Assembly (NCBI GenBank): GCA_964202905.1
Contig: CAXNJO010000014.1
Span: forward strand, 1 to 64,000
Length of the DNA stretch: 64,000 nucleotides
Origin: Polyangiales bacterium
GTDB lineage: Bacteria > Myxococcota_A > Polyangia > Polyangiales > JADJQN01
Direction of reading: 5' to 3'
Shown here: positions 1 to 37,257 of the stretch, piece after piece
Layout: every line of letters begins with the position of its first letter
Numbering within the stretch: the first letter of the stretch is position 1
Translations under genes and position numbers: made by a program
The notes under the pieces: model-generated
Seen by the model: the letters and a program-made list of their open reading frames with translations, nothing else
Told to the model about the DNA's origin: nothing
The model's database searches: none

Positions 1-73
1 TGCCCAGGGACGGAATCGAACCGCCGACACGGGGATTTTCAATCCCCTGCTCTACCAACTGAGCTACCTGGGC
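1..73 (-). tRNA. tRNA-Phe (GAA)
   Basis: Reverse complement GCCCAGGTAGCTCAGTTGGTAGAGCAGGGGATTGAAAATCCCCGTGTCGGCGGTTCGATTCCGTCCCTGGGCA forms a cloverleaf with D loop, GAA anticodon and TTCGA T loop. The 3' end lies at the window edge. Confidence 0.97.
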
Positions 74-84
74 GAAGGGTGCCG

Positions 85-112
85 AAGATACCCGGCGACG
101 CCGGGGTGTCAA
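85..112 (-). promoter_or_regulatory. sigma70-like promoter of tRNA-Phe
   Basis: Minus strand TTGACA-N16-TATCTT directly upstream of the tRNA. Confidence 0.7.
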
Positions 113-169
113 GAACGTCCGACCGGCAAGTTGCTCTTCTCGAGCCCAAGCGCGTTACACTGTGCGCCC

Positions 170-1225
170 ATGTCTCAGGGAGCACTGGACGCGCTACGTC
201 GACTGATGGGAGAGGCCGCCGCCGGCGGGCAGGCCAAGGTCGACGCCGTCACGGCGCTGTCGCAGCGCACGCTGTTCGTGCCCACGTGGCGCATCGGCGA
301 CGACGGCTTCCGCACCGTGATGAGCTCGAGCGGCGTCGCGGCGCTGCCCGTCTGGGTCGAGCTCGCGGGCCTCGAGGAGGCGTCGCGCTCGCTCGGTTGG
401 GCCATGCCCGACGGGCGCTTCGCCTTCAAGGAGGTGGGCGCGCGCGCCGCGCTAGGCCACGCGCTCGCGAACAACCTGCTCGTCGTCGTCGAGTTGGGCA
501 GCGATCCGTCGATGGAGATCGAGCAGGAGGAGCTGCGGCCGCTCCTCGCGCCGCGCGGGCGGAGCGAGTCCTCGAGCGGCTTCGCGGCTGCCGGGCGGCT
601 GGACGTGCCGGTCGTCGCCGCCGCGCGCTCGCTCACGCCGCCGTCCGGCATGCCGCGGGTCACGCCGACCCCGCCCGCGCGTATGCCGACGCCGATCGCC
701 GCACCCGCGGGCTACGTCCCCGGCACGCCGGCGCGCAAGCCGCAGCGCTTCGACTCCGAGCACCCGCCTGCGCCGCGTCCGTCGTACGCCGAGCCACAGC
801 GGGCTTCGGTCGCCGAGCCGCAGCAGCCCTCGCTGGCGCAGCCTGGGACACAGCGTCCCGCGATCCGGCCTCCCGTTGCGGTGCAGGCCACGTTCGGCTC
901 GGGGCCGGGCGCGGTGACGATCGGGCCGCTGCAATCCGAGGCGGGTGACACGCTGCTGCGCGCGCTCGCGGACTCCCTGCGCGAGTACCCGGAGGTCGAG
1001 TGGGCGCTGCTCGCGTCCGTCGCGCGCGGGCCTGCCGCGGCGGCGCCGACGGTGGCCGTCCGCGTGGACGCCTCGTTCCGGATGCGCGTCGGCGAGATCG
1101 TCGCGGCGGTGCGCGCCGCCGCTGCGGGAGCGGGCGCAGGGCTCGACGTGCTGCTCCTCGACGACGCGCAGCTCATGCGGCAGGCCCGCGCGGCCGGCCA
1201 GCCCTTCTATCCGTGGCGACGCTGA
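170..1225 (+). CDS. SseB-family protein (N-terminal SseB domain, Pro-rich linker, SseB_C-like domain)
   Basis: LFVP...ALPVW pattern; C-terminal LREYPEVEWALL...PFYP; ATG at 170. Confidence 0.65.
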   Translation: MSQGALDALRRLMGEAAAGGQAKVDAVTALSQRTLFVPTWRIGDDGFRTVMSSSGVAALPVWVELAGLEEASRSLGWAMPDGRFAFKEVGARAALGHALANNLLVVVELGSDPSMEIEQEELRPLLAPRGRSESSSGFAAAGRLDVPVVAAARSLTPPSGMPRVTPTPPARMPTPIAAPAGYVPGTPARKPQRFDSEHPPAPRPSYAEPQRASVAEPQQPSLAQPGTQRPAIRPPVAVQATFGSGPGAVTIGPLQSEAGDTLLRALADSLREYPEVEWALLASVARGPAAAAPTVAVRVDASFRMRVGEIVAAVRAAAAGAGAGLDVLLLDDAQLMRQARAAGQPFYPWRR

Positions 1226-1286: not shown

Positions 1287-2636
1287 GTGAGCGAGGTCTT
1301 CGGCGGCGCGTCCCCGCGCCTCGTCACGACGCTGCCGGGCGCGCGCGCCGCGGCGCTCGTCGAGACGCTCGCGCGGACGGAGTGCCCCGCGCTGACGGCG
1401 CGGCGGGCGCGGCGCGCCGAGACGTCCGGCGCGAGCCACGACCCGATCGTGTGGGCCCGCGCGCGCGGCGCGAACGTCGAGGACGTCGACGGGAACGTCT
1501 TCGTCGATCTCACCGCAGGCTTCGGCGCCGCGGCCGTCGGTCACGCGCACCCGCGCGTCGTCGCGGCGGTCGGGACGCAGTCCGAGCGGCTCCTGCACGC
1601 CCTCGGTGACGTGCACCCCTCCGACGTGAAGGTCGCGCTGCTCGCGCGGCTGGCTGCGCTCGCCCCCTTCCCCGCGGCGCGCGTCATCCTCGGGCTCTCC
1701 GGCGCCGACGCGATCGAGGCCGCGCTGAAGACCGCCTGCCTCGCGACGGGCCGCCCGGGCGTGCTCGCGTTCGCGGGCGGCTATCACGGACTCTCCTACG
1801 GCACGCTCGCGGCGTGCGGCTACAAAGACGCCTTCCGCGCGCCATTTGCCGGGCAGCTCGGTCCGCACGTCACGCTCGCCCCGTATCCGGCCGCGGGCGA
1901 CGGTGCCTCGTATCGACACGCCATCGCGACGCTCACGCGCGCGTGGGACGCAGCCCCCGTCCCGATCGGCGCGGTGCTGTTCGAGCCGGCGCAGGGGCGT
2001 GGCGGCATGGTGTTCCCGCCGCGCGGCTTCCTCGAAGCGCTCGCGGAGATCGCGCGGGAGCGCGGCGCGCTGCTCGTCGCGGACGAGATCTACACGGGCC
2101 TCGGGCGCTGCGGCGCGACGTGGCTCTCTGTCGCGGAGGGCGTCGTCCCCGATCTGCTCGTGACGGGCAAGGCGCTCGGCGGCGGCATGCCCGTGAGCGC
2201 GTGCATCGGCCGCGCGGAGGTGATGCGCGCTTGGGGCGATCCGGGCGGCGAGGCGATCCACACGAGCACCTTCCTCGGCCACCCGCCCTCGTGCGCGGCC
2301 GCGCTCGCGGCGCTCGACGTGCTCGAGGAGGAACAGCTCGGCGCGCGGGCCACCCAGGTCGGCGAGGCCTTCCGCGACCGGCTGCGCGAGGCGCTCGGCG
2401 GACACCGCTGCGTGCGCGGCGTGCGCGGCGCGGGGCTGATGATCGGCGTGGAGCTCGACGGCGGCGCACGCGGTCTGCGCATGGTCCGCAGGGTGCTCGA
2501 GCGCGGCTGGCTCGTGCTCCCGGCCGGGCCCGACGCGCGCGTGATCGCGCTGACGCCACCGCTCACCATCGCGGCGCGGCTGCTCGACGGCTTCGCCGCG
2601 GCGCTCGACGACGCGCTCACCGAGGACGGGCCGTGA
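1287..2636 (+). CDS. Class III (omega/ornithine-type) PLP aminotransferase
   Basis: DVDGNVFVD, GHAHP, LSGADAIEAALK, GYHG, FEPAQGRGG, DEIYTGLGR, PDLLVTGKALGGG (PLP Lys); start uncertain. Confidence 0.9.
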   Translation: MSEVFGGASPRLVTTLPGARAAALVETLARTECPALTARRARRAETSGASHDPIVWARARGANVEDVDGNVFVDLTAGFGAAAVGHAHPRVVAAVGTQSERLLHALGDVHPSDVKVALLARLAALAPFPAARVILGLSGADAIEAALKTACLATGRPGVLAFAGGYHGLSYGTLAACGYKDAFRAPFAGQLGPHVTLAPYPAAGDGASYRHAIATLTRAWDAAPVPIGAVLFEPAQGRGGMVFPPRGFLEALAEIARERGALLVADEIYTGLGRCGATWLSVAEGVVPDLLVTGKALGGGMPVSACIGRAEVMRAWGDPGGEAIHTSTFLGHPPSCAAALAALDVLEEEQLGARATQVGEAFRDRLREALGGHRCVRGVRGAGLMIGVELDGGARGLRMVRRVLERGWLVLPAGPDARVIALTPPLTIAARLLDGFAAALDDALTEDGP

Positions 2637-3816
2637 GCACGGCGCCCGCCCACGGCCCCGGCCACGTCGCGCGCGACGACCCGCGGCGCCTCGCCCTCGC
2701 CGCCCGGTGCGCCGCGCTCATCGACGCCGCGCGCGCCGCCGAGCCCATCGAGGCCGCGCGCGAGCACTTGCTCGCCGACCTCGGCGCCTTCCAGGCCGAA
2801 CATACGCCGCCCTACGTTCGCCTCGCGGCGGCGGCACGACGCGCGAGCGCACCCAAGACCGGACACGCTGCCCCGCGCTCCCGACGGATGTGTTCCGCAT
2901 GGCCCGGGTCTCCACCTACGACGCCACCGAAGACACGCGCGTCTTCCGCACCTCGGGCACGACGAGCGGGGCACGCGGCGCGCACCCCTTCCGCGACCTC
3001 TCGCTCTACGACCGCGCAGCGCGCGCAGCGGCCGACGCGGCGCTCTTCCCCGATCTCGCGGCACGCGGCGCGCAACGGCGCACCATGCGGCTCGTCGTGC
3101 TCGCACCGCGCGAAAGCGAGGCGCCCGACTCGTCGCTCTCGTACATGCTCGCGCGCTTCGCGGAGTGGTACGGCGACCCGCGCGAGGGCGGCGTGACGTA
3201 CGCCTTCGAGGACGGCGCCGTGGACGGCGACGCGCTCACGGCCGCGCTCGGGCGCGCCGCGCGGGACGCCGCACCCGTGGCGCTGCTCGGCACGTCCTTC
3301 GCGTTCGTGTTCGCGGAGGACGCGCTCGGCACACGCCGCTTCGCGTTGCCACCGGGCTCGCGCGTGATGCAGACGGGCGGCTTCAAGGGACGCACGCGCA
3401 CGCTCGAGCCCGAGGAGATGCGCGCGCTGCTCTGCGGGCGTTACGGCGTGCCCGACGCGCACGTCATCGCGGAGTACGGGATGACCGAGCTCTCGTCGCA
3501 ACTCTACGAGGGCACGCTCGCCGACGCGCTCGGCGGCGGGCCCGTCGCCCCCCGCGCGCTGCGGGTGCCCCCGTGGGTGCGCGCGACGCCGGTGGACCCG
3601 GAGACGCTCGAGCCCGTCGCGCCGGGCGAGGTGGGCGTGTTGCGCCTCGACGATCCCGCCAACCTCGACTCGGTCTGCGCGGTGCAGACCTCCGACCTCG
3701 CGCGATGCGTGGAGGGCGGCCTCGCCCTGATCGGACGCGCGCCGGGCGCGGTGCCACGAGGCTGCTCGCTCGCGATCGAGGAGGCGCTCGCGCCCCTGGA
3801 GGCGCGGGGTGACTGA
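2633..3816 (+). CDS. LuxE-like acyl-protein synthetase, frameshifted near 2830-2870
   Basis: GTG overlaps the upstream stop (GTGA). N-terminus (FQAEHTPPYVRL) and body (PALPTDVF, FRTSGTT, MQTGGFKG, EYGMTEL, C-terminal RGCS) lie in different frames. Confidence 0.8.
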
Positions 3817-5059
3817 GGCTCCGGAACCGCAGGCGCTCCGCGCGCTGGCCCTGCGCCTCCGGGATAGCGGCGCCGCGTTGCGCGCGCTCTCGCCGGGCGA
3901 GCGTGCCGACGCCATCGGCCGCGCTGCCGCGCGCCTCGCGGACCCCTCCGATCCACTCGGACAGGAAGCGCGCGCGCGCCTCGCCGAGTCGAGCGAGCAC
4001 GACCCCGCGATGGTCGAGTGGGGGCTCCGCACCACGCTCACCGCGGACGCCGCCGACGCGCTGCGCACGCTGCACTCGGTGTGGCAGCCGCACGCGACCG
4101 AGCTGATCGCGCAGCCCGCGCGGCTCGCCGTCGTCGTGCTCGCCGGCAACGTCTTCACCGCGGGCTTTCGCGCGTTGGCGCTGCCGCTGCTCGTCGGCGC
4201 GCCGACGCTCGTCAAGGCGTCGTCGCGCGACGACGTGTTCCCCCGGCTCTTCGCCCGTGCGCTCGCCGCAGAGGCGCCGCGCCTCGGCGACGCGCTCGGC
4301 GTCGCGACCTTCCCGCGGGGCGACGAAGCCCGCGAAGCGGCGCTGCTCGAGCACGCCGACAGCGTCTCCGTGTACGGCTCGGAGGCGACGATCGCCGCGG
4401 TACGCGCGCGGCTCGCGCCGAGCGTCGCGTTCGCCGGACACGGCCACGGCGTCGGCGCTGCGTACGTGCCCTACGCCGCGCTCGAGACCACGGCGGATGC
4501 CCGCGAGGCCGCGCAGCGCCTCGCCCTCGACATCGCCGCGTACGACCAGCGCGGCTGCCTCTCACCACACGTCGTCTTCGTCGCGCGCTCGGGGCGCGTC
4601 GTGCCGCGCGAATTCTCGCGCCTGCTCGCGGACGACGGCCTCGCGCCGCTCGCGCGCACGCTGCCACGCGGCGCGCTGCCCATGGACCTCGGCGCACAGC
4701 AACTCCAGTGGCGTGGGCTCGGCGTCGTGCGGGGCGAGCTCTTCGAAGGCGATGGCTTCGCCGTGTCCTACGAGGCCGACGGCCCACTCCGCCTGAGCCC
4801 CGGCTACCGCAACGTGCTCGTGCTCGAGTGCGGCGACCCACGCGAACTCGCGCGCCGCCTCGCGCCGCTCGGCGTGCACCTCAAGGCGCTCGGCGTCGGC
4901 GGCGGGCCCTCGCAGCGCGCCGAGGTCGCCCGCGCGCTCGAGGCCCCGCTCGCACCGCGCCTCTCCCCGCTCGGTGCGATGCAGACGCCCGGCCTCGGCG
5001 GCCCCGCGGACGCGCTCGATCCACTCGCACCCTTCCGCCGCTTCCTCGCGCTCGACTGA
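3809..5059 (+). CDS. LuxC-like acyl-CoA/acyl-protein reductase
   Basis: LAGNV, LVKASS, VYGSEATI, DQRGCLSP (catalytic Cys); overlaps the luxE-like stop. Confidence 0.85.
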   Translation: MTEAPEPQALRALALRLRDSGAALRALSPGERADAIGRAAARLADPSDPLGQEARARLAESSEHDPAMVEWGLRTTLTADAADALRTLHSVWQPHATELIAQPARLAVVVLAGNVFTAGFRALALPLLVGAPTLVKASSRDDVFPRLFARALAAEAPRLGDALGVATFPRGDEAREAALLEHADSVSVYGSEATIAAVRARLAPSVAFAGHGHGVGAAYVPYAALETTADAREAAQRLALDIAAYDQRGCLSPHVVFVARSGRVVPREFSRLLADDGLAPLARTLPRGALPMDLGAQQLQWRGLGVVRGELFEGDGFAVSYEADGPLRLSPGYRNVLVLECGDPRELARRLAPLGVHLKALGVGGGPSQRAEVARALEAPLAPRLSPLGAMQTPGLGGPADALDPLAPFRRFLALD

Positions 5060-5181: not shown

Positions 5182-5919
5182 TCAAACGCCGATGAAGAGT
5201 CGGTGTCCGAAGTTGCGCTCGAGATTCCCCGCGAAGATCTTCGAGGCCGCGCTCTCGATGTCGTACTCGACGCGCTTGAACTCGAACTCGCGTTTGTCGG
5301 TGTCGAAGATCGTGTAGCTCGCGCGGTTGTCGTAGTCGCGCGGCTGCCCCACGGAGCCGACGCTCACGATGTACTTCCAGCCCTTGCGCAGGGTGAAGCG
5401 CCGCGGCGGCAGCTCCTCGACCTCACCCGCCCGCAACGCGAACACCTTGCAGAGGTGCGAGTGGCCGATGAGCGTGAGATCGCCGAGGTCGTGCCACATG
5501 GCGAGGCACTCGCGCGCCTGCTCGGGCGCGAAGATGTACTCGAACTCCTCGATGCGCAGCGGCGAGCCGTGGCAGAGGTGGAGGCCGACGTCGTTCAGCT
5601 CGTGCTTGTAGGGCAGCGATTTCAGCCACGCCATGTTGTCCGGCGTGAGCTGGTTGGCGTGCGTGTCGAGCGCCTGGCGCGCGGCCTCGTAGTAGTACGA
5701 GTAGTCCATGCGACCGGCGACGGCCGCGTCGTGGTTGCCGAGGATCGTCACCTCGGCGACGCGACGCACGATGTCGGCGCACTCGTTCGGGCTCGCGCCG
5801 TAACCGACGACGTCCCCGAGACAGTAGTAGCGGTCGATCCGCTCGTGACTCAGCGCCTCCATCACGGCGCTGAGCGCCTCGATGTTCGCGTGGACGTCGC
5901 TGAAGATGCCGAAACGCAT
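5182..5919 (-). CDS. Calcineurin-like metallophosphoesterase (YfcE-like)
   Basis: SDVHAN, CLGDVVGYG, GNHD, HGSP, GHSH, GSVGQPRD motifs. Confidence 0.93.
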   Translation of the reverse strand: MRFGIFSDVHANIEALSAVMEALSHERIDRYYCLGDVVGYGASPNECADIVRRVAEVTILGNHDAAVAGRMDYSYYYEAARQALDTHANQLTPDNMAWLKSLPYKHELNDVGLHLCHGSPLRIEEFEYIFAPEQARECLAMWHDLGDLTLIGHSHLCKVFALRAGEVEELPPRRFTLRKGWKYIVSVGSVGQPRDYDNRASYTIFDTDKREFEFKRVEYDIESAASKIFAGNLERNFGHRLFIGV

Positions 5920-6000
5920 GCGTGGCCGTGTGTATAGGGTGACCGTGTCGGGATGTAAATGGCCGTGGTGACGTGACGTCACCCACGTCGCCGGATGCGG

Positions 6001-8916
6001 TCAGAGATCGGCGAGGTCGGCGTCGGGCGCGGTGCCCGCCAGCTCTTGGTAAAAGCGCCGCGAGAAGGCCTTGACCGGGTCACCCTCATCCAGCGGACGC
6101 TCGCCGCGGACCTCCTGCGCATCGCGGCGCGCCTCGTCCTCGCGGACGATCGCCTGCTGCGCGATCCGCATGAGCTTCTCGCCCTCGGACTCGTCCCGCG
6201 CGAGCGCCCGCAGCGCCTCACGGGAACCTGCATTCGCGGCGTGCGCGAGCGCGTATGCGAACCGCTCATCGACGCTCTTCGGCTCACGGGCAGCGCGAAG
6301 CAACGGCCGATAGCTGGCCTGCCCGAGCTCACCGAGGATGCGCGCGACCTCCTTCCAGACCTCGCTCTCCTCGCTCTGGAGCAGGTGCAGCAGCGGCACC
6401 ACGGCGCGGCGCAGCTTCAGCTGGCCGAGCGCGAGCGCCGAGGCCTGCCGCACGAACGTCTTGCGCGCAGAGAGACCATCGATGAGCACGTCACCGCTCG
6501 CCTCACCGAAGCCGACCACCTTCGCCGAGACCTGCACGACCTCGGGACGCGGCATCTTGCGTGCCGCCTTGAACACCGCCTCGACGAGCTCGGCATCGCC
6601 CCGCCGGCACAGCTCGAGCGCCGCGGCGCGGCGGGCCCGCGGGTGTTCGAGCAAGAGCACCAACTCCGGCGGGCCCATTTGCGCGAGCTTCGAGAGATCG
6701 ATGTCGCCGACGCCGCGTCCCTCGTCGCCGCGAACGGCACGGATCGCCTGCCACGCGACGTCGTGCGTCTCGGAGTCCATCGCGATCTCGTACTCGGCCG
6801 CGGCCGCGAGCAAGGCCTCCCAGTTCGCCGCGAGTTCCTCCGCGCTGAGGCCTCCGCGCCCCTTCGCGCCCGCCGTCCGCCTGAACGACTCGATCTGCCG
6901 CGTCACGAGCTCGCCCGGCTCGTTCGCGAGTCCAATCGTCACCGCGCGGTCGCGCAGCGGCGCGGGGAGCGCCACACCGAAGTCGATCGCGTCCTCGAGG
7001 GTGCGCGCGAACGTCGCGTCGACGGAAGCCCGCGGCACCGAGAGCACGAGCAATGCGCGATCGAGGCGCTCGGGGCTCGCCCAGGCCGCGAGCCGCGCGA
7101 CGCCAGCCGCCGCGTCCCGCGCGTTCGTCGAAGCACCGGCCGCGGCCGTGAACGGCTGCGCCGCCTCGCGCACGGGCGGGGGCGCCGCGAGCGCGCGCTC
7201 GCACGCGGTCGCGCCGTCGACCTGCGCGTCGGGCATCTTCCCCGCCTTCTCGAGGATGAGCGCGACGTTCTCCTCGCGCGGCGCCACAACTTCCAGCGTG
7301 CGCACGTAGCGGCCGTCGGCCGCGTGGAGCGCGACGCGGGAGGCGAAGCGCTGACGCAACACGTCCAGCACGGCGCGGTGCGCAATCTCGCGCGGGTCGA
7401 GTGCCGCGCGGCGCACGTAGGGCCGCCCCTCCTCCCCGGCAGCGACGAGCGCGAGGAGCACGACGGGGTGCCCCTGCACGACCGCGAGCTGCACGAGCAG
7501 GTCCGCGCCTCCGTCGAACGCCGCCTCACGCCCAGCGTCGAGTCGCGCGAAGAGCCTCACGCCATCCTCCAAGATGGCCTCGAGCTCGCGCTCCGCGTCC
7601 CGCAGGAAGCCCGGCGGCGGCGGCACGGAGCCGCCGGGGGAGGCGGGCGCGATCGACGCGGGCGGGGCCGATGCGTTCGACACCGTCTCAGCGGGCCGCG
7701 CCTCGACGGGCGAGAGCGGGGGCGGCGCCGCAGAGAGCCGCTGAGAAACGCTGCCGATCGTCGTGCGCGCCTCGTCGAGCGCGTGCACGTCGGTCGTCGG
7801 CTCGGCGGGCATCCTCACGACCCCCGTGTCCTCGAGGGAATCCGTCGCGTCGAGCTCCTCGATCTCCTCCGCAACCTCGTCGTCACCGACCTCGTCGTCC
7901 GCGTTCAGCTCTTCCGCGACCTCGGCCTCATCGACGAGCTCCTCGACCTGGTCCTCGATCCGCGCGTTGCCCCGCGCAGCGACGACCGGCACCTCGGACA
8001 CCTCGTCCGACTCCACGCCCGCCTCGACCGCCGCGGCGAGCCCATCGTCCTCGGGCAGCGGCTGCGTGAGCGCGATGCGGGACGACGCAGGCGGCGGGGG
8101 CACGCTGGGCGCGGCGAGCGGGAGCGTCGCGGGCGCGGGCACCGACGCCGGACGCGCCGCGGCCGCGGTGAGCGCAGCGGTGAGTTCCGCCTCGCGCGCG
8201 CGCAACGCCTCGAGGCGCGCGGCGAGTTCCTCCTCCCGCTGCGCGAGGTCGCGCTGGCCGGCCTCGACCTCCTCCTCACGCGTACGCAGCTCGTCCTCGC
8301 GCGTCGTCAGGCCCTCGCCGCGGACCGCGAGTCGCTCTTCGCGCGCCGCGAGGTGCTCTTCGCGCCGCGACAGCTCCGCATCACGCGCGTCCTGCGAGGC
8401 ATCGCGCGACTCCTGCGCGGCACGGCGCGCCGCCAGACCCGCCCCCGCGGTCTGCCCCGGAGGCAGCGCGAGGTACGCCGCGAGCTCCGTGACACCGACG
8501 ACGGCCGTCGCCTCTTGTGCGTACGCAGGCACGGCGTGCGCGGTGTCCTTCGCGAGCCGGGCGAGCAGCGCCGCGCGCTCCGCGAGCACCGTGTGCCGGA
8601 GCGCCTCGGGCACCACCACGCAGAGCTTCCGCAGCGCGGGGTCGTGATAGACGAAAGGGATCGCGAGCTCTTCGCCGGACTCGAAGCGATGCAGCCCGCC
8701 CGCGAGCGTCGGCTCGCGCAGCGCCGGGTCCATCCCGACATTCACCGCCCGATAGACCTGCACCGAGCGCACGTGCGCATCTGGCAGCGTCACGAGCATG
8801 GGCTCGAGCCGCGTGAGACCGGCCTCACCCGTGTACGGCAGCTCGGGGGCCTCCCCCTCCGCGGCAGGATGTTCGAACGAGCGCGACGTCTGGGCGACCG
8901 ACGATCCCTTGTTCAT
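6001..8916 (-). CDS. Large multidomain protein: CpXC-like N-domain, coiled coil, acidic linker, C-terminal HEAT repeats
   Basis: RBS GAGGAG before the ATG; VN..DPALRE..L.G.L..F..PFVYHDP; heptad L..RE repeats; FVRQASALALGQL..AVVPLLHLL HEAT-type repeats. Confidence 0.75.
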   Translation of the reverse strand: MNKGSSVAQTSRSFEHPAAEGEAPELPYTGEAGLTRLEPMLVTLPDAHVRSVQVYRAVNVGMDPALREPTLAGGLHRFESGEELAIPFVYHDPALRKLCVVVPEALRHTVLAERAALLARLAKDTAHAVPAYAQEATAVVGVTELAAYLALPPGQTAGAGLAARRAAQESRDASQDARDAELSRREEHLAAREERLAVRGEGLTTREDELRTREEEVEAGQRDLAQREEELAARLEALRAREAELTAALTAAAARPASVPAPATLPLAAPSVPPPPASSRIALTQPLPEDDGLAAAVEAGVESDEVSEVPVVAARGNARIEDQVEELVDEAEVAEELNADDEVGDDEVAEEIEELDATDSLEDTGVVRMPAEPTTDVHALDEARTTIGSVSQRLSAAPPPLSPVEARPAETVSNASAPPASIAPASPGGSVPPPPGFLRDAERELEAILEDGVRLFARLDAGREAAFDGGADLLVQLAVVQGHPVVLLALVAAGEEGRPYVRRAALDPREIAHRAVLDVLRQRFASRVALHAADGRYVRTLEVVAPREENVALILEKAGKMPDAQVDGATACERALAAPPPVREAAQPFTAAAGASTNARDAAAGVARLAAWASPERLDRALLVLSVPRASVDATFARTLEDAIDFGVALPAPLRDRAVTIGLANEPGELVTRQIESFRRTAGAKGRGGLSAEELAANWEALLAAAAEYEIAMDSETHDVAWQAIRAVRGDEGRGVGDIDLSKLAQMGPPELVLLLEHPRARRAAALELCRRGDAELVEAVFKAARKMPRPEVVQVSAKVVGFGEASGDVLIDGLSARKTFVRQASALALGQLKLRRAVVPLLHLLQSEESEVWKEVARILGELGQASYRPLLRAAREPKSVDERFAYALAHAANAGSREALRALARDESEGEKLMRIAQQAIVREDEARRDAQEVRGERPLDEGDPVKAFSRRFYQELAGTAPDADLADL

Positions 8917-9017
8917 GGAGTCTCCTCGGCCGAGATCGGTATCACGAATCACGTCGCGATCCGCACGTCGCGTGCGTCGGGCGGGCGAGCGCGCCCGCAC
9001 GTATACTCGCGCGGCCC

Positions 9018-9620
9018 ATGACGTCCCCCACCCGCCCTGCTGCCGCGCCCGATCACATCCAGGACCTCGCCGAGGGCTGCGTGCGCTTCGTCGAGCGCGC
9101 CCTCGGCCTGACGTTGGACTACACGCCCGAGACGCTCCCGCTCGTCGATCACTGGCTGCGGACGGCCTGCGCGCCGACGCCTGAGATGCTCGAGCTCACT
9201 GCACCGGCCGCGGGCGCCTACTTCGGCGAGGTCGTGCGACGCGCACTCGGGGACGCCCGCTGGTACGCGCCCGTCGGCGAGCCGCAGCGCTGGCGCCTCG
9301 AATACGAGCACGTCTTCCTCGCCTTCAACCCCATCGGCACCGCGGTCGAGGCCGCAACGGGCGACCATGTCGACGGCTGGTCCGCTGAGTTCGCGTTGCT
9401 GCCGGCAGACCGCGCGACGCTCGAGGATGCGCTCGCTCGCACCACCGGCGACCTCCGTGAGGACGACTTCTTCCGCCTCGCCGTGCGCTACGACGTCGTC
9501 GAGCAGATTGTCGAAACGCTGCGCGCCCTCGCCGCAGCGCGACTGGAGGTAGACCGCTACTTCGGCGCCGAGGTTTACGCGGCCGCAAACGCGCTCTCCT
9601 CGCCCACCACGTTGCACTGA
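9018..9620 (+). CDS. Hypothetical protein with LDYT.E.L..VD / GAYFGEV motif
   Basis: Clean ORF with typical codon bias and a globular-looking sequence. Confidence 0.7.
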   Translation: MTSPTRPAAAPDHIQDLAEGCVRFVERALGLTLDYTPETLPLVDHWLRTACAPTPEMLELTAPAAGAYFGEVVRRALGDARWYAPVGEPQRWRLEYEHVFLAFNPIGTAVEAATGDHVDGWSAEFALLPADRATLEDALARTTGDLREDDFFRLAVRYDVVEQIVETLRALAAARLEVDRYFGAEVYAAANALSSPTTLH

Positions 9621-13990: not shown

Positions 13991-14629
13991 GTGGGTAGCC
14001 ACGACCGCACCCCGCCGAGCACCGCGGCGGGCGCGTCCCGCGCGGTGCCCGATCTCACTCGCGCTGCGCGTGCCATCGACGAGTTCCTCTCCGCGATCGG
14101 CGCGCCCACCGGGGATCCAGAGCTCGCCGGGACGGGGCGGCGCGTCGCGGAGGCGTTCGCGCTCGACCTGCTCTCGGGTTACGGCGAAGACCCTGTCCGC
14201 ATCCTTGCCGAAGGCACGGGTTCACACTCGGCCGGCCTCGTCGTCGTGACGGACCTCGCCGCGGCGACGATCTGCCCCCATCACCTCCTTCCTGCGATGG
14301 GAAACGTGCACGTCGGTTACTTCCCAGGTGAGCGCGTCGTGGGGCTCGGCGCGCTCGGGCGACTGGTCGACTGCTACGCGCGCCGCCTCGCTCTCCAAGA
14401 AGACATCGGCCAGCAGATCGCCGACGCGCTCGTCGCGCACCTCGGGGCGCGCGCGGCCGGGGTCGCGATCGACTTCGAGCAGGCGTGCGTGTCAGCGCGC
14501 GGTGAGCGACGTCATGGTGCGCGCGCCTACACGGTGGCCTTCGCGGGGGCGGCGCAGGATGGCGCTCCCCTGCGCGCGGAACTGCTCCATGCGTTGCCGC
14601 CCGCAACGTCACGGGGGGGCGCGCGATGA
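13991..14629 (+). CDS. folE: GTP cyclohydrolase I (FolE)-like, divergent
   Basis: CPHHLLP, VGYFP, ARRLALQE, CVSARG. Confidence 0.8.
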   Translation: MGSHDRTPPSTAAGASRAVPDLTRAARAIDEFLSAIGAPTGDPELAGTGRRVAEAFALDLLSGYGEDPVRILAEGTGSHSAGLVVVTDLAAATICPHHLLPAMGNVHVGYFPGERVVGLGALGRLVDCYARRLALQEDIGQQIADALVAHLGARAAGVAIDFEQACVSARGERRHGARAYTVAFAGAAQDGAPLRAELLHALPPATSRGGAR

Positions 14630-25556: not shown

Positions 25557-25900
25557 TGCGCGTCGGAGGTCCGACGGCGCATGGAAAACGGTCGGAAGTC
25601 GAGGCTCGGAGCGTTCTTGAGGCGTGGCGGCGAAGCGGGCTCACGCTCCAGCGGTTCGCGAAGCAGCGAGGGTTCGTACCGCAGCGGCTGCGGTGGTGGC
25701 AGGCGAAGTTCGCGCGGCCCGAGAAGAGCACGGCGCTCGCGCCGCTTCCGACGCTGTTGCCAATTCGCGTGATTACGGAGCCGCAGCGGCGCGGTGAGCC
25801 GGTGACGGTGCTGCTGCGCACCGGGCACGTGCTCCAGGTCGCGCACGGCTTCGACGAGCAGGCGTTTGCACGGGTCGTCGCGCTGCTCGAGGGTGGATGA
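25557..25900 (+). CDS. tnpA: IS66 accessory protein TnpA
   Basis: WRRSGLTLQRFAKQRG...LRWW; overlaps tnpB; start uncertain. Confidence 0.75.
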
Positions 25901-26259
25901 TGCTCGGGCTGCCACCGAGCGTGCGCATCTACTTCGCGACCGGGCTCGCGGGCATGCGCAAAGGCATCGACGAGCTGCGCGCCATCGTCGAGGGCACGCT
26001 GCGCCACGATCCCTACGCGGGGCACCTCTTCGTCTTCGTCGGCAAGGCGCGCGACAAGGTGAAGATCCTCTTCTGGGACCGCTCGGGCTTCGTGCTCTAT
26101 CTGAAGCGCTTGGAAAAGGGGCGCTTTCAGCTCCCGACCGTCGACCGTCGCCGCATGCACGTCGAGATGGAGCCCGCGCAGCTCGCGATGCTGCTCGATC
26201 AAGACCGCGCCCGTCGCGCAGGAGGCGCTCGACGTGATTACCGCGCTCTACCGCGCTGA
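25897..26259 (+). CDS. tnpB: IS66 accessory protein TnpB (C-terminus fused at the deletion junction)
   Basis: MRKGIDEL, HLFVF..KILFWDRSGFVLYLKRLEKGRF, QLAMLLD. Confidence 0.9.
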   Translation: MMLGLPPSVRIYFATGLAGMRKGIDELRAIVEGTLRHDPYAGHLFVFVGKARDKVKILFWDRSGFVLYLKRLEKGRFQLPTVDRRRMHVEMEPAQLAMLLDQDRARRAGGARRDYRALPR

Positions 26260-26720
26260 GCACGAGGCCGCGGCACGCAAACTTGGTGACGCCGCCAAAT
26301 TGGAGTTTCGGAAACACCGCGCAGGACCGATCCACGGACGCTTCAAGCAGTGGCTCGACGCGCAGCACGCAAAGCAACCGCCGAAGAGCCCGATCGGCGC
26401 CGCCATACGCTACACGCTCGGCCAGTGGGACGAGCTCGGCGTCTTCCTCGACGACGCCCGCGTGCCGCTCGACAACAACGCCTCCGAGCGCGCGCTGCGC
26501 AGGGTCGCGCTCGTCCGTAAGAACCATCTCTTCGTCGGCGACGCCGCCGCCGGCCAGAACCTCGCCGGACTCTACTCGCTCGTCGCCACCTGAGAATCAT
26601 GCGGCATCAAACCCTTAGACTACCTCGCTGACGTCCTCGCCCGCGTGCAGGTCCACCCCGCGAACGCCATCGACGATCTGTTCCCCGCCGCCTGGGCCGC
26701 TGCGAACGGAACGTCGATCC
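26200..26720 (+). pseudogene. IS66 TnpC C-terminal remnant with internal stop
   Basis: PPKSPIGAAIRY, LDNNASERALR, RKNHLFVG, YSLVAT* then PLDYLADVL..DDLFP. Confidence 0.85.
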
Positions 26721-26918
26721 GCGCGCGTGTCACGACGGTGGTCGCCGAACGGTTACAACGACCCCGCGCCTCGAACCGAAAGGCGGCGAGCGTCGGCGCC
26801 GTGATGCATCAAGGTGTCGTTGACGGGTCACGCCACGAGCTGCACGCCGAACCGCGCAATTGTCACGACGATGAACGCAGGGCCGCGACGTCGCGAGCCT
26901 GTCCCAGCGAGCGAAAGC

Positions 26919-26948
26919 AAAACGCGCCTCCTGGGGGCCAGGGGCGCG
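26919..26948 (-). terminator. Rho-independent terminator after rplQ
   Basis: GC-rich hairpin CGCGCCCCTGG/CCAGGAGGCGCG followed by TTTT on the minus strand. Confidence 0.6.
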
Positions 26949-26984
26949 CAGCCAGCACGTGAGTTGGTCTGACGGGCCGAGCCG

Positions 26985-27473
26985 TCAGACGCCTTCAGGC
27001 AGGAACTCAATCATGGCCATCTCGGCATTGTCGCCGCGACGCGGGCCAACTTTGAGCATACGAGTGTAGCCGCCGCCCTTCCCATTGGCCGCCTTCACGC
27101 GCGCCGCGAAACGAGGCGCTAGCTCGTCAAACAGCTTCTTCACCAGATCGACCTCTTCGGTCGTTCCGTCGGCGAGCGTGCGCGTCCCCTTGTGCGGAAG
27201 GAACGCAGCAACCTGCCGGCGGGCTGCAAGTCGAGCCCCCACCACGCGCTGCCGCTCCGAGTCGCTCAGCTTCCCCTCGTCGACCGTCAAATCATCCCCC
27301 AGCCGAACCGCCCGGGTGAGTAGTCGCTCAGCGATACGCCGGAGCTCCTTCGCCTTCGCGTCGGTGGTCTCGATTCGCTCGTACATGACGAGATTCGCCG
27401 CGAGATTACGGAACATCGCACGGCGATGACTCGTATTGCGGCCGAACTTCCTTCCCGCTTTCTTGTGACGCAT
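26985..27473 (-). CDS. rplQ: 50S ribosomal protein L17
   Basis: [31 protein letters not shown]. Confidence 0.97.
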
Positions 27474-27518
27474 GGTGCTTACCCGTCCGAATCCGCGCGA
27501 GGCGGCCTGCTGTGGAGA

Positions 27519-28544
<1,026 letters not shown>

Positions 28545-28660
28545 TCGATGTAGTCCTTGGCGGTAGTATGACCGCTGTGGAAGCGTCTAAAAACGGAGAC
28601 TTCGCGAGCGATGGGACCGGCGCCCTGAATCGCGACGCGGACGAACGAGGACCACCCCGC

Positions 28661-29287
28661 TCAGCGCGAGTAAAACTCGACGATCAGCTGCTCCTGGATG
28701 GGGAGCGTGATTTCCTCCCGGTTCGGCGCAGTCTTCACCGTCGCGGCGAAACCGCCCTTGTCCAGGTCGAGCCACTGCGGGACTCCGCGTCGCTCAACAC
28801 CCTCAAGCGCAGTGGTGACGCGCTTGTGAGCACGGCTGCCTTCAGCGACAGTGATCTTGTCGCCGGGCTTGACGCTGTACGACGGCACGTTCACGACCCG
28901 GCCGTTCACAAGCACATGCTTGTGCCGGACGAGTTGACGCGCTTCGCTCCTCGTGGCCGCGAACCCGATCCGATAACACGCCGAGTCCAAGCGACGCTCC
29001 AGGAGTCCGAGGAGTTGCTCGCCGGTGACTCCCTTGACTCGGTCGGCTTCCGCGAAGTATTTCCGGAACTGCCGCTCCAGCACGCCATAGATTCGACGCA
29101 CCTTCTGCTTTTCACGGAGGCGAACGCCGTATTCCGTGAACTTGATACGGCGCTGGCCGTGCTGACCCGGGGGATAGGGCCGACGATCGAAGCTGCACTT
29201 GTCGGTGTAGCAGCGATCGCCCTTGAGGAAGAGCTTAACGTTTTCCCGCCGGCAGAGCTTACAGACCGGCCCAATGTAACGCGCCAT
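28661..29287 (-). CDS. rpsD: 30S ribosomal protein S4
   Basis: [30 protein letters not shown]. Confidence 0.98.
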
Positions 29288-29380
29288 CTCGAGTTCTCCG
29301 AAATCGTTGCTGCTGACTGGTGGTTGGCTGGGCGGCAGCTCCCCAGTCATTCCCGAGCGAAAATCCGTAAATCGAGCGCG

Positions 29381-29785
29381 TCAGACCCGGCGACGTTTCG
29401 GGGGCCGGCAACCGTTGTGCGGGATTGGGGTCACGTCGCGCACGAGAGTTACTTTGAGCCCGGCAATCTGAAACGCACGAAGCGCACTCTCCCGACCCGC
29501 CCCCGGTCCCTTCACGAAGATGGCAACGCTGCGCATCCCGTGCTCCTGCGCCTTCCGCGCTGCGTCCTCTGCGGCGAGCTGCGCGGCGAAAGGTGTGCTC
29601 TTCCGAGAGCCTTTGAAACCTTTCGAACCGGCGCTCGACCAAGACACCACGTTCCCACTCAGGTCAGTGATTGTCACGATGGTGTTGTTGAAGGTCGACT
29701 GCACGTGCGCGATGCCCGTGCCGACATTCTTCTTTACCTTCTTCTTCGTCTTCGCGCCGGCCTTCGCCGCTGCTGCCTTCGCCAT
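29381..29785 (-). CDS. rpsK: 30S ribosomal protein S11
   Basis: [31 protein letters not shown]. Confidence 0.98.
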
Positions 29786-29834
29786 GGAGCTCTCCTGATT
29801 CCTGTCTACGGGCCGCGTCTAGCTGACTGGGACG

Positions 29835-30221
29835 CTACTTCTTCGTGACCCCGCCACCGCCACCCGCACTCACGCCCCGCCGAGGCCCCTTGCGGGTCCG
29901 TGCGTTCGTGTGCGTCCGTTGCCCACGAACGGGAAGCCCCCGGCGGTGGCGGAGGCCTCGGTAACACCCAAGGTCCATCAGACGCTTGATATGCATCTGA
30001 ATCTCACGCCGAAGGTCGCCCTCGACCTTGTACGTCGACTCGAGGAGCTCGCGGATCTTCTTGACGTCGTTGTCGTCGAGGTCCTCGGCACGCTTGTTTT
30101 CCGGGATAGAAGCCCCCGCACAGATTTCCTGCGCGCGAGTAAGCCCCACTCCGTAGATGTATTGAAGCGCGATGACGATGTGCTTGCGACCCGGGAGGTC
30201 GACGCCGGCGATACGTGCCAT
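29835..30221 (-). CDS. rpsM: 30S ribosomal protein S13
   Basis: [28 protein letters not shown]. Confidence 0.98.
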
Positions 30222-30236
30222 GACGAATACCTCCCC

Positions 30237-30350
30237 TCAGCCCTGACGCTGCTTGTGGCGCGGGTTGGTGCAAATGACACGCACGACGCCACGGCGCCGG
30301 ATCACTTTGCACTTGTCACAGACAGTCTTGACACTCGGACGAACCTTCAT
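30237..30350 (-). CDS. rpmJ: 50S ribosomal protein L36 (not in the ORF track)
   Basis: Translates to [37 protein letters not shown]. Confidence 0.97.
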
Positions 30351-30413
30351 GGCCGACTCCTGAAATGCTCCCGGCGGGCCCCTGCCGCCGGCGAATGAAC
30401 GATGCCGCCCGCC

Positions 30414-30635
30414 TCAACCGAACCGTACTTCGATCCTCGCCTCGGACGGCTGATAAACGGAAAGTGACACCAGTACTCGATCCCCGGGGATAACCTTCAC
30501 GGTCGCTCTCCGAGCCGCCGCTCCCATCGACGCGGTCACCCTGCGCCCATCCGAGAGCGCCACCAAGTACAAGCCTTGGGCGGCTGCGCTGACGACGACT
30601 CCTTCGGACTGTTTTCGTGAACTCTCCGCCGCCAT
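30414..30635 (-). CDS. infA: Translation initiation factor IF-1-like, divergent
   Basis: Canonical position (adk-X-rpmJ), 73 aa, EGVVV..VIPGDRVLVSLSVY..ARI.VR. Confidence 0.75.
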   Translation of the reverse strand: MAAESSRKQSEGVVVSAAAQGLYLVALSDGRRVTASMGAAARRATVKVIPGDRVLVSLSVYQPSEARIEVRFG

Positions 30636-30653
30636 GTTCCGCCGGCCTAGCCC

Positions 30654-31298
30654 TCAGCCGCCGACCGCCGCTTGAATTCGCCGCGTCACCTCGTCGAGGC
30701 CGCCCACTCCGTTCACTGCTGCCACGAGGCCGCGCGAACCATAATAATCTAGCAGCGGCGCAGTATTCTCCAGATATTCTTGATGCCGCTTCCGGATGAC
30801 CGTCTCGTGGTCGTCCTTCCGCTGGGCGAGATCGCCACCGCATACGCCGCAGCGTCCGTCCGAGGGGGGAGCACTATAGCGCACGTGGTAGACCTGTCCA
30901 CAGGCGATACAGCTGCGACGCCCGGTGATGCGATCTATCTGCTCGTCAAGGCTGACTTCTATCGAAACGACCCGTTCAATCGCCCGGCCAAGACGAGCGA
31001 GCATCACGTCCAGGGACCCGGCCTGCGGCACCGTCCGAGGATACCCGTCGAAGATGGCCCCACGGGAGGCATCCGGCCGGACGAGGCGATGCTCAACGAG
31101 CTCGAGCACGACCTCATCCGGCACCAACCGCCCGGCAGACATGTACCCCTCGAAACGTGCGCCGAGTTCACTTCCCGACGCACGCTCCGCGCGCATCATA
31201 TCTCCCGTCGAGATCTGAGGAACGCCAAGCGTTTCCACCAATCGCTTAGCCTGAGTGCCCTTCCCAGCACCCGGCGGGCCGAACAGAACGAGGTCCAC
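30654..31298 (-). CDS. adk: Adenylate kinase (Zn-lid)
   Basis: GPPGAGKGTQA, ISTGDM, DGYPR, CxxC..CxxC lid. Confidence 0.97.
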   Translation of the reverse strand: MDLVLFGPPGAGKGTQAKRLVETLGVPQISTGDMMRAERASGSELGARFEGYMSAGRLVPDEVVLELVEHRLVRPDASRGAIFDGYPRTVPQAGSLDVMLARLGRAIERVVSIEVSLDEQIDRITGRRSCIACGQVYHVRYSAPPSDGRCGVCGGDLAQRKDDHETVIRKRHQEYLENTAPLLDYYGSRGLVAAVNGVGGLDEVTRRIQAAVGG

Positions 31299-31301
31299 GC
31301 G

Positions 31302-32615
31302 CTACGCCCGCCGACCGCGAATGCGCGGCCCCTTCGGTCCGGTCAGGCCCTCGTAATGCCGCGTGATCAGGTGCGACTCGATCTGCTGCACCGTGTCGAG
31401 CGCGACGCCCACCACGATCATGATCGAGGTGCCGCCGAAATAGAAAGGGACGTGGAAGTAGGACTGCAGCAGGGACGGCACCGTGCAGACCGCCGCGATG
31501 TAAATCGCGCCCCCGAAAGTGATCCGCGACACGCGACGGTCGATGTACTCGGCGGTCTGCTTCCCCGGTCGAACGCCCGGGATGAAGGCATTCTGCTTCT
31601 TGAGATTGTCTGCAACCTCGACGGGCTGGAATGTCACCGCCGTGTAGAAATATGCAAAAAACACGACCAGGACCACGAACAGGACGGTATATCGCCAATC
31701 ACCCGGATTGAGCACAGCTTGCAAAGCGTCCATTCCCGGGACATTGAAGTTCGCGAGCGTGTTCGGGAACATCAAAAGCGACGAGGCGAAAATTGGAGGA
31801 ATGACTCCTGCCATGTTCACCCGAAGCGGAAGGTGGGAGACCTGGCCTCCATACATCTTCCGACCGACCATCCTCTTCGCGTAGTGGATCGGAATCCGAA
31901 GTTGCCCCCGCTCGAAGAAAACGATGACGCCAATGACCGCGAGCGCGATGACCCCCACAAGCAACAGAGCGATGGGCTGAATCTGACCGATCTTGACTTG
32001 CTGGACCGTTTGGAAGAGCGCGTCCGGAAGACCGGCGACGATGCCCGCAAAGATGATCAGCGAAATTCCGTTGCCAATCCCGCGCTCGGTGATCTGCTCA
32101 CCAAGCCACATGATGAATGCGGTCCCGGTGGTGAGGGATACGACCGTCAGGAAATAGAAAGCCGGGCCGTGAAGAGTAACGACGTCGCCGTACTGAGATT
32201 CGCCGTTCAGACCCTCGAGCCACAACCCTATCCCTACCCCCTGAACGCAACTCAGGATGACCGTACCGTACCGGGTGTACTGGTTGATCTTTCGATTGCC
32301 AGCCTCGCCCTCTTTCCGCAACTCCGCCAACTGTGGAACGACGACGCTCATCAGTTGGAGAATGATGCTTGCGGAGACGTACGGCATGATACCGAGGGCG
32401 AAGATCGACATCTGCTCAAGGGCTCCCCCTGAGAACATGTTGAACATGCCCAGGAAGCTACCGCTGCTCGAGGAGACGATCTGCCGCATGACGTTGCGGT
32501 CAACGCCCGGGGTCGTGACGAAAATGCCTGCGCGATACACGGCAAGCAGCGCGAGCGTCCACCCGAGACGCCTCGTGAGCTCCGGAATCTTGAAAATGTT
32601 CGCGAAGGCGCTCAT
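31302..32615 (-). CDS. secY: Preprotein translocase SecY
   Basis: [43 protein letters not shown]. Confidence 0.98.
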
Positions 32616-32660
32616 CGAAAATCGACCTCTGGAACGAGTCGGGAGGTAAAGCGCGAAGCG

Positions 32661-33155
32661 CTACTCAGCGCGCGGGGCGAGGGCGATGACCTCAGCCTTA
32701 CCGCCGGATTTCGCAATCTTGTCGAGCGCCGATTTGCTGAAGCCGTGGGCGCGAATGGTAAGAGGATGGACGAGTTCACCATCACCGAGCACCTTCACAC
32801 CATCGAAACGCCCGCGGACCAGCCTCTTCTCTCGTAGGGCCGTCGCGTCCACAACCGCGCCAGGCTGGAACATGGCGAGGTCGCTGAGATTGACCGTCGC
32901 AAGCTGACGGGCAAACGGATTCCAGAAACCCACCTTCGGCAGCCTGCGCTGGAGGGGCAGCTGCCCGCCCTCGAAGGCAAGCTTCGAGAATGCGCCAGGA
33001 TGCCGGGCCTTCTGTCCCTTTTGCCCCTTACCGGCAGTCTTCCCAAGACCCGAACCGGGCCCGCGTCCCTTGCGGCGCTTGGTCTTCACCGCACCAGGCG
33101 CAGGGCGCAGGCGCGACAGAATAGGAACGTAGGCCTGCGTCGTTTCGTCAGACAT
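32661..33155 (-). CDS. rplO: 50S ribosomal protein L15
   Basis: GRGPGSGLGKTAGKGQKGQ, FEGGQLPLQRRLPK. Confidence 0.97.
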   Translation of the reverse strand: MSDETTQAYVPILSRLRPAPGAVKTKRRKGRGPGSGLGKTAGKGQKGQKARHPGAFSKLAFEGGQLPLQRRLPKVGFWNPFARQLATVNLSDLAMFQPGAVVDATALREKRLVRGRFDGVKVLGDGELVHPLTIRAHGFSKSALDKIAKSGGKAEVIALAPRAE

Positions 33156-33351
33156 GACCGCCCCCATACCCGATGGTTTCCACCTTCACGAGATGCAGCA
33201 CCTTCTTGACCATGCCGCGAAAGGACGGGGTGTTGTCCACGACGACCGTCGAGTTCGGCCCCCGGAGCCCGAGCCCCTTCAACGTCAGGCGCTGAGAGGG
33301 AATCCGGCCAGCACCGCTGCGGACTTGGGTGACTTGAAGCTTGCTGGTCAT
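33148..33351 (-). CDS. rpmD: 50S ribosomal protein L30
   Basis: [20 protein letters not shown]. Confidence 0.95.
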
Positions 33352-33860
33352 GACCGACTCTCGACGATGTCTTCGACGGCACGGCCACGTCGACCGGCGA
33401 CATCCGCAACCGACTCAAGGCTCTGCAGCGCCGCGACGGTGGCGTGAACGACGTTGTGTGGATTGGAGGTGCCAAGAATTTTCGAGAGCACGTCGCGGAT
33501 ACCGGCAGCCTCCACGACGGCGCGAACCGCACCTCCAGCGATAACGCCCGTTCCTGCGGAGGCCGGCCGAAGGAGTACCTTACCCGCACCGAAATGACCG
33601 TCGACACGGTGCGGAATCGATGTCCCTACGAGTGGGACGCGGAAGATGTGCTTGCGCGCCTGCTCATTCCCCTTGCGGATGGCATCGGGGACCTCGTTCG
33701 CCTTGCCGAGCCCGACGCCCACGTGGCCCTTGCCGTCTCCAACAACGACGAGCGCGCTGAAGCTGAACCGTCGGCCGCCTTTAACTACCTTGGCCACGCG
33801 ATTGATGTGTACGACGCGCTCGGTGAGGTCCTCGAGCGTATTCGGATCGATGCCTGCCAT
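33348..33860 (-). CDS. rpsE: 30S ribosomal protein S5
   Basis: [22 protein letters not shown]. Confidence 0.98.
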
Positions 33861-33877
33861 CTTCTTGTTCCTTCCGC

Positions 33878-34240: not shown

Positions 34241-34330
34241 GTTCTCTCATCCTCCGCGCCACCCACCGGCTGGGTACGGCAAGCGATCCCGCGCGCTAGG
34301 GACTGGACACCACTCGGGCGACCGTCCGTT

Positions 34331-35334: not shown

Positions 35335-35346
35335 GACGAATGCCCC

Positions 35347-35532: not shown

Positions 35533-35535
35533 GGC

Positions 35536-36108: not shown

Positions 36109-36250
36109 CGCCTCTTTGGCCTGTAAGGCACCTGCCACCAGGGTTCCTCGCCGGAGGGTACCCCGCCTGCTGCCCGCTCAGCCCGTTCGCTTTCGAGTTG
36201 GACCAGACCGAATCTGGCCTTCGCTGTTGGCCTCGGTGAGGCCGCTATCG

Positions 36251-36939: not shown

Positions 36940-36940
36940 G

Positions 36941-37255: not shown

Positions 37256-37257
37256 GG

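Follow-up and report, generated by a model that had tools for sequence, protein, structure and literature searches.

A luciferase-free aminotransferase–LuxE–LuxC module that probably replaces QueC and QueF in queuosine biosynthesis

We analysed a 64,000-nucleotide stretch of a Polyangiales bacterium genome (assembly GCA_964202905.1, contig CAXNJO010000014.1; hereafter the window), in which three consecutive genes encode a class III pyridoxal phosphate (PLP)-dependent aminotransferase, a LuxE-like acyl-protein synthetase and a LuxC-like acyl-protein thioester reductase (Table 1). The closest database records with a name are from Polyangiales and Myxococcota. As the initial annotation of this DNA had proposed, the genes are translationally coupled, by a GTGA overlap at 2633–2636 and an eight-base overlap at 3809–3816, and both peptide motifs that it had read in the LuxE-like and LuxC-like products are present. 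Its statement that luxAB and luxD are missing from the window also held: a Pfam scan of 44 window open reading frames (ORFs), which excluded a number of short ones, chiefly from the ribosomal operon, contained no luciferase or LuxD family. A single luciferase-like query from a relative gave no match in the host genome.

The luxE reading frame is broken near 2840–2870. The frame starting at 2633 encodes an N-terminus homologous to the start of intact LuxE relatives (E 1e-5), and another frame encodes the rest. Contigs from two sequencing runs span this region in two letters fewer than the window (run X1, 2776–3498 in 721 letters; run X3, 2734–2998 in 263 letters), although the two runs may sample the same population and are then not fully independent. 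By length arithmetic, the two-base shortfall equals the luxE frame offset. Because both contigs are two bases shorter and because hemB and one tgt gene are likewise split in this assembly, we conclude that the frameshift is probably an assembly error.

The three-gene neighbourhood, and the co-conservation of the aminotransferase with luxC and luxE on which the initial annotation depended, proved robust in 40 relatives from the same order. The phylum-wide sample comprised 391 genomes that were at least 90% complete. Among the order relatives, an aminotransferase orthologue was found in 37, luxE in 37 and luxC in 36. The grouping is not due to chance, since aminotransferase and luxE were adjacent in all 37 relatives with both genes and all three genes lay together in 30 of these 37; in the remaining seven, luxC was on another contig (four), 9 kb away (one) or without a match (two). 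Fusions of LuxE with LuxC and of the aminotransferase with LuxE also occur. The aminotransferase of the cultured species Sandaracinus amylolyticus (P0025) is 64% identical. Family f35 keeps the aminotransferase at another location (5/5), and there luxE–luxC follow dnaN, recF and an RNA methyltransferase gene (L086, L090 and L091). Across the phylum, luxE of this kind was present in 331 of 391 genomes, nearly always as one copy and also in genomes of 1.8–3 Mb. This single-copy, near-core distribution suggests a housekeeping function rather than a secondary metabolite. Searches for LuxE relatives in viral contigs found none, and a sequencing-run search listed no RNA run as holder.

The aminotransferase scored below every NCBIfam cut-off among the 25 families shown and represents a distinct class III subfamily. 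Its PLP lysine (Lys295), Asp266 and Arg238 were invariant (46/46), and the nearest folds are those of GABA (γ-aminobutyrate) transaminases at ~33% identity. At the site of Escherichia coli GabT R141, which we take to be the arginine binding the distal carboxylate, 44 of 46 sequences have leucine; at E211, presumably the switch glutamate, all 46 have arginine; and at R398, which we assume to be the second carboxylate arginine, arginine is not among the six commonest residues. The Arg + Leu pair was common to 103 of 147 aminotransferase representatives by pattern match, and an Atlas search added only unnamed aminotransferase clusters.

These residues bear on a housekeeping amino-acid or tetrapyrrole route, in which the module would convert glutamate via its semialdehyde to aminolevulinate or ornithine, or act on GABA. 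Such a route would suit a near-core, single-copy module, and the best named matches of the aminotransferase, all below their cut-offs, are GABA and acetylornithine aminotransferases. We nevertheless regard it as extremely unlikely: the presumed Glu switch and both presumed carboxylate arginines of GabT are replaced, hemA was present in 41/41 genomes with hemL above its cut-off, and argD (beside argF) and bioA are separate genes. The gene check covered hemA, hemL, argD and bioA and left out argB, argC, proA and proB. A bypass from glutamate to aminolevulinate was ruled out by the hemA and hemL results, and an identity of the aminotransferase with ArgD, BioA or HemL by the location of those genes elsewhere.

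For the LuxE-like protein, the best PDB match of the profile was 7XC6_E (E 1e-35), and K241, R358 and C367 (L031 numbering) were invariant in 61/61 sequences. Invariant polar SSL and SQ stand where luminous LuxE has VWF and TC; by analogy with adenylation domains we take these positions to line the acyl pocket. The LuxE-like model lies nearest to aryl-acid ligases (PaaK, ClxA and a phenazine biosynthesis protein), a likeness that is weak since luminous LuxE has also been compared with PaaK. The LuxC-like profile matched 7XC6_A (E 8e-36) over residues 50–445 of 477, and Cys250 was invariant (58/58). In Photobacterium LuxC, a C-terminal segment is described as covering the 40 Å fatty-acyl cleft (PMC9157457, in part); the LuxC-like protein ends ahead of this segment. 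In Pfam and NCBIfam, none of the three proteins matched the QueC PP-loop or QueF T-fold families, and in Pfam none had an RNA-binding or ribosyltransferase domain.

The acid-to-aldehyde-to-amine chemistry that the initial annotation had put forward for a non-luminescent module is plausible in view of the co-conservation and the invariant LuxE Lys, Arg and Cys and LuxC Cys. A fatty acid as substrate is very unlikely, and a fatty amine, amine lipid or secondary metabolite as product is unsupported: the module is single-copy, near-core and exclusive with queC plus queF, and its relatives are found near queuosine or deazapurine genes, as set out below. That LuxE and LuxC would reduce a fatty acid to an aldehyde, which the aminotransferase would turn into a fatty amine for a lipid or metabolite, agrees with the family functions of LuxE and LuxC (PMC9157457, in part), with the lack in the aminotransferase of the arginine binding a distal carboxylate, and with a precedent: the dodecylamine of tambjamine BE-18591 is described as the product of TabE, a reductase that clusters with LuxC, and TabA, a transaminase of class III (bioRxiv 10.1101/2025.08.11.669332, available text). 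It leaves unexplained, however, the exclusion with queC and queF (0/331), the switches within families and the queD, queE and queG neighbours; moreover, the cleft-roofing LuxC segment is missing, and the annotated loci show no recurrent gene for an acyl carrier, a thioesterase or tailoring next to the operon. We consider a fatty-amine pathway very unlikely.

The host genome, which is 94% complete, contains folE, queD, queE, two tgt genes, queA and queG, none of them in the operon. The best-scoring model for queE was QueE, at 266 bits against a cut-off of 300. The folE product performs the first step of the queuosine pathway, which is shared with folate, and folE was also the only weak match to the QueF model in this genome. 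We did not find queC or queF by model searches, nor by tblastn with QueC and QueF of a relative (no match at E 0.1). In the textbook pathway, QueE makes the acid 7-carboxy-7-deazaguanine (CDG), Tgt needs 7-aminomethyl-7-deazaguanine (preQ1), and QueC followed by QueF forms the link between the two (PMC5699537, in part). Since QueE yields a carboxylic acid and Tgt needs its aminomethyl form, an acid-to-amine module would be a direct substitute for QueC and QueF. The Tgt encoded next to queA has, as mapped by motif, the Cys and Val assigned to preQ1-inserting enzymes (PMC5699537, in part). The second host Tgt scores above the bacterial cut-off and is 51% identical to the one beside queA. While tgt, queA, queG, queD and transporters were checked in the host genome, the phylum-wide markers were queE, queC and queF.

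The prediction that the module stands in for QueC and QueF was set before testing. Both queC and queF were present in none of the 331 luxE-positive genomes and in 45 of the 60 luxE-negative ones. The luxE-positive genomes had queC in eight cases, a weak QueF-like match in 14 and a strong QueF in none, and queC was found in 52 luxE-negative genomes. Over the whole set, QueC occurred in 60/391 genomes and matches to the QueF model in 59/391 (44 strong, one bimodular QueF in G166 and 14 weak), and queE was present in 386, including 329 of the 331 with luxE. A LuxE profile run over the 60 luxE-negative genomes gave three weak matches, none of the module's clade. The aminotransferase profile was run on 80 chosen genomes (40 of the 331 luxE-positive and 40 of the 60 luxE-negative), where orthologues scored at least 430 bits and other aminotransferases at most 346 bits. 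Orthologues were found in 37/40 luxE-positive genomes, 0/25 with queC and queF, 0/7 with queC only and 3/8 with neither route. Of these last eight genomes, three also lacked queE, and in two of the three that kept the aminotransferase its gene lies at the edge of a contig.

The exclusion was also visible within families. Genome G034 (family f16, the other three of four members luxE-positive) and genome G166 (family f49, the other 14 of 15 members luxE-positive) lack the module and have adjacent queC and queF. Other orders of the host's class use queC, and many families of other classes use the module. Five further genomes behind luxC loci, whose completeness was not given, had no QueC match.

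Matches near the thresholds were treated as follows. Weak QueC Pfam matches (E above 1e-7) were attributed to other PP-loop proteins and not counted; G021 gave a split match with E 6e-15. The 14 weak QueF-model matches were not counted as QueF: the five of them that were read all lacked the catalytic cysteine, and none of the 14 genomes has queC. One weak QueF-like match scored 73 of 87 bits. This conserved QueF-like protein is ~200 aa long, is extended at its N-terminus, lacks the catalytic cysteine in those read and occurs in 14 module-bearing genomes, mostly of family f51. In three of five rechecked genomes, which were scanned for weak QueE matches, QueE models scored best yet under the cut-off.

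Nine module genomes with queC were seen (the eight in the phylum set and G004). In four of the seven whose context was examined, queC lay inside dpdA/dpdB DNA-modification islands. These islands (L095, L098, L253 and L254) have their own queC and queE, with queD or folE2, and the island QueC is 74% identical between the distant genomes G004 and G319. In G309, queC is on a short contig, with folE2 and a piece of queE on another, and in G366 and G383 it lies in phage-like or mobile DNA. Islands of the dpd type are described as modifying DNA with the nitrile preQ0 or with ADG (PMC5699537, in part). Because dpd islands need preQ0, islands that bring their own queC would fit a host route making no preQ0.

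Four physical links to queuosine genes were found among the loci scanned. The most extensive is in locus L025 (record titled Pseudovibrio), a toyocamycin-like cluster with the order queD, aminotransferase, HAD, PurA-like, phosphoribosyltransferase, GuaB-like, luxE and luxC, where the contig ends directly after luxC. QueC was looked for in the L025 genome and not found. Its product may be a 7-aminomethyl deazapurine nucleoside. L027 has a QueE-like gene in divergent orientation to luxE–luxC, and in L111 queE lies 3 kb upstream of the module. In L197 the order is queG–aminotransferase–luxE–luxC, but here the aminotransferase belongs to a different, non-orthologous lineage.

The L025 cluster raises the question of whether the module acts on CDG in another way, with a CDG nucleotide or tRNA-bound CDG as substrate, or with the amine going mainly into a non-queuosine deazapurine metabolite. 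Its phosphoribosyltransferase, PurA-like and GuaB-like genes are as in deazapurine nucleoside clusters, TubE is reported to ribosylate CDG itself (PMC6112128, available text), and the host has a second tgt. Against this, the three proteins lack RNA-binding and ribosyltransferase domains, the host has tgt, queA and queG, whose products depend on preQ1, and the fusions found join LuxE only with LuxC, the aminotransferase or an alcohol dehydrogenase. We judge such uses of CDG very unlikely.

We conclude that the module most likely constitutes an alternative de novo pathway that converts CDG to preQ1, replacing QueC and QueF and bypassing preQ0. FolE, QueD and QueE, encoded outside the operon, would make CDG from GTP. 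LuxE would adenylate the CDG carboxyl with ATP and move it onto its own C-terminal cysteine, from which the acyl group would pass to Cys250 of LuxC for reduction by NAD(P)H to 7-formyl-7-deazaguanine. The PLP aminotransferase would then convert this aldehyde to preQ1, to be built into queuosine by Tgt, QueA and QueG; preQ0 would not be an intermediate. Most likely the chemistry is that of known enzyme families on a new substrate. Observed above are which genes are present, how they co-occur or exclude one another, what lies beside them and which catalytic residues are kept; what the substrate is, how each chemical step proceeds and which cofactor and amino donor take part are predictions from these observations.

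Several observations weigh against a CDG-to-preQ1 route. The genomes compared are related and not independent, so that Fisher values for the exclusion overstate it. Seven of the 60 luxE-negative genomes have queC without queF (five rechecked), G159 and G296 have queE but neither route, and in G271 and G359 luxE and queC occur without an orthologue of the aminotransferase. Most loci lack a nearby queuosine gene (among 80 metagenome loci, many of them short, one has such a gene), and the four links may in part be due to chance. No preQ1 riboswitch reached the Rfam gathering score in 40 loci; such control is not obligatory. The LuxC of an unrelated luxE–luxC cluster (G316) is equally short, which weakens the argument from the cleft. 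The host encodes a queuosine-precursor transporter, making salvage of preQ1 possible. In Pantoea, Azospirillum and two fusions, LuxE with the same motifs and from the same clade has a short-chain dehydrogenase/reductase (SDR) or an alcohol dehydrogenase as partner in place of the aminotransferase, and the clade alone therefore does not fix the substrate. Finally, no enzyme assay or queuosine measurement for any module-bearing organism was found in the literature. Full-text searches, with subscription papers and supplements outside their reach, returned no paper linking LuxE or LuxC to queuosine.

Two of these points touch on further observations. The combination of queE and queC without queF or the module was seen in G053, G074, G119, G320, G350, G385 and G394; family f52 may have another step from preQ0, or stop there. 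In the LuxE tree (38 rows: 33 of the 61 aligned sequences and seven others, two sharing a name with, or absent from, the set shown), obtained from one search with a midpoint root, LuxE linked to SDR or alcohol dehydrogenase was nested inside the module's clade. The sister luxE–luxC–SDR groups lie in Azospirillum (L218), together with an NMT1/THI5-like ABC transporter, and in Pantoea (L217), and the alcohol dehydrogenase–LuxE fusions are P0130 and P0146. These sister groups and fusions may reduce a heteroaromatic acid, of which the thiamine pyrimidine is one candidate, to an alcohol.

The transporter and the sister clusters, together with the aryl-acid ligases among the nearest solved LuxE folds (PaaK, ClxA and the phenazine biosynthesis protein), could also be read as preQ1 salvage, with the module reducing and aminating another heteroaromatic acid (e.g. 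the thiamine pyrimidine acid) and the exclusion reflecting shared ancestry; the NMT1/THI5-like binding protein and SDR of Azospirillum would suit such a substrate. Salvage, however, leaves queE retained in 329 of 331 genomes without a known outlet for CDG. Shared ancestry is also at odds with two switches within families, links to three different que genes, and the alternation between routes among orders of the host's class and families of other classes. We therefore hold salvage combined with another acid to be unlikely, and retain the conversion of CDG to preQ1 as the most likely explanation.

Only one de novo queuosine pathway is recognised, and QueC and QueF serve to mark it. A genome that has tgt, queA and queG without queF is classed as a preQ1 salvager (PMC10570037, in part). 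If our interpretation is true, ~85% of the sampled phylum genomes (331/391) are misclassified in this way, a widespread luciferase-free LuxE/LuxC subfamily can be assigned a function, and biocatalysis gains a carboxylic-acid reductase that accepts a heteroaromatic acid. It is likely, in our estimate, that most of the phylum makes queuosine de novo by this nitrile-free second pathway, in which the LuxE–LuxC pair acts as reductase of a heteroaromatic acid and preQ1 is formed by an aminotransferase dedicated to this step, and that these organisms are queuosine producers and not salvagers. The module would then have been swapped with queC–queF more than once, have recruited a second aminotransferase lineage (L197) and have been borrowed for the predicted 7-aminomethyl deazapurine nucleoside (L025).

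Around the operon, an SseB-like gene upstream and, downstream, a metallophosphoesterase gene (73–81% identical in relatives), a HEAT-repeat protein gene and an unknown ORF keep synteny with it across the order. The contig starts with a tRNA-Phe gene, and the sole site found in a promoter scan is the sigma-70-like site upstream of this tRNA. Fragments of an IS66 transposase lie just past the ribosomal protein operon.

Table 1. Location of the features discussed. Positions refer to the window unless a locus is named.
Feature	Location	Strand	Remarks
Class III PLP aminotransferase	1287..2636	+	449 aa; Pfam Aminotran_3 PF00202, E 4e-91
LuxE-like acyl-protein synthetase	2633..3816	+	Frameshifted; Pfam LuxE PF04443, E 8e-9; C-terminal RGCS
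LuxC-like acyl-protein thioester reductase	3809..5059	+	416 aa; Pfam LuxC PF05893, E 4e-40; DQRGCLSP
folE, GTP cyclohydrolase I	13991..14626	+	Pfam GTP_cyclohydroI, E 2e-43; outside the operon, 9 kb downstream
tRNA-Phe	1-112	-	
SseB-like gene	131-1225		
Metallophosphoesterase, HEAT-repeat protein, unknown ORF	5182-9620		
IS66 transposase fragments	25897-26959		
Ribosomal protein operon	26988-44098		
Second host Tgt	L047:1501-2565 (G000:C9:12943-14007)		
QueF-like protein	L080:8519-9175, L081:8118-8774, L082:7653-8231, L083:7085-7663, L084:2108-2707		
Toyocamycin-like cluster	L025:896-8936		
luxE–luxC of family f35	L086:7501-13917		
luxE–luxC–SDR, Azospirillum	L218:11938-17779		
luxE–luxC–SDR, Pantoea	L217:11899-15246		

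Compared with known systems, the module would have in common with QueC plus QueF that CDG is the substrate and preQ1 the product, that ATP activates the carboxyl and that NAD(P)H is the reductant (PMC5699537 and PMC10570037, both in part). The upstream and downstream enzymes are common to both routes. The proteins, however, are unrelated, and the module would proceed by aldehyde formation and transamination, whereas QueC and QueF proceed by amide, nitrile and nitrile reduction. The predicted cost of the module is one adenylation and one hydride, against two ATP steps and a nitrile reduction for QueC and QueF. The reduction of the nitrile by QueF takes two hydrides.

The LuxC–LuxE complex of Photobacterium phosphoreum (PDB 7XC6; PMC9157457, in part) is the best PDB sequence match for both module proteins. 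The equivalents of its LuxE Lys238, Arg355 and Cys364 and of its LuxC Cys296 are invariant in the module proteins, and the Lys, Arg and Cys of LuxE were shown to matter in Photobacterium (PMC9157457, in part). Unlike the luminous system, the module lacks luxAB and luxD and is coupled to an aminotransferase. Its LuxC ends 141–179 residues past the cysteine, compared with ~192 in P. phosphoreum, and is without the P460–P488 segment, and hydrophobic residues of luminous LuxE are replaced by polar ones. Both proteins scored far below the curated LuxE and LuxC equivalog models (LuxE-like, 38 of 550 bits; LuxC-like, 26 of 750 bits).

TabE–TabA of tambjamine BE-18591 and TamH likewise use a reductase to turn a thioester into an aldehyde and a class III transaminase to aminate it but, according to the available text on them, act on carrier-bound fatty acyl chains within a biosynthetic cluster. 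In contrast, the module includes an activating enzyme of its own, belongs to the near-core genes of the phylum and tracks queuosine genes. MxcL is, we presume, another system of this kind. The tailoring set of toyocamycin (QueD, HAD, PurA-like, phosphoribosyltransferase and GMP-reductase-like) matches L025 (bioRxiv 10.64898/2026.04.15.718813, in part). Toyocamycin and tubercidin clusters use QueC/ToyM or a UbiD decarboxylase on CDG, and the available text names no LuxE or LuxC in them. With the GABA and acetylornithine aminotransferases GabT and ArgD, the module aminotransferase has in common the class III fold with its PLP Lys and Asp.

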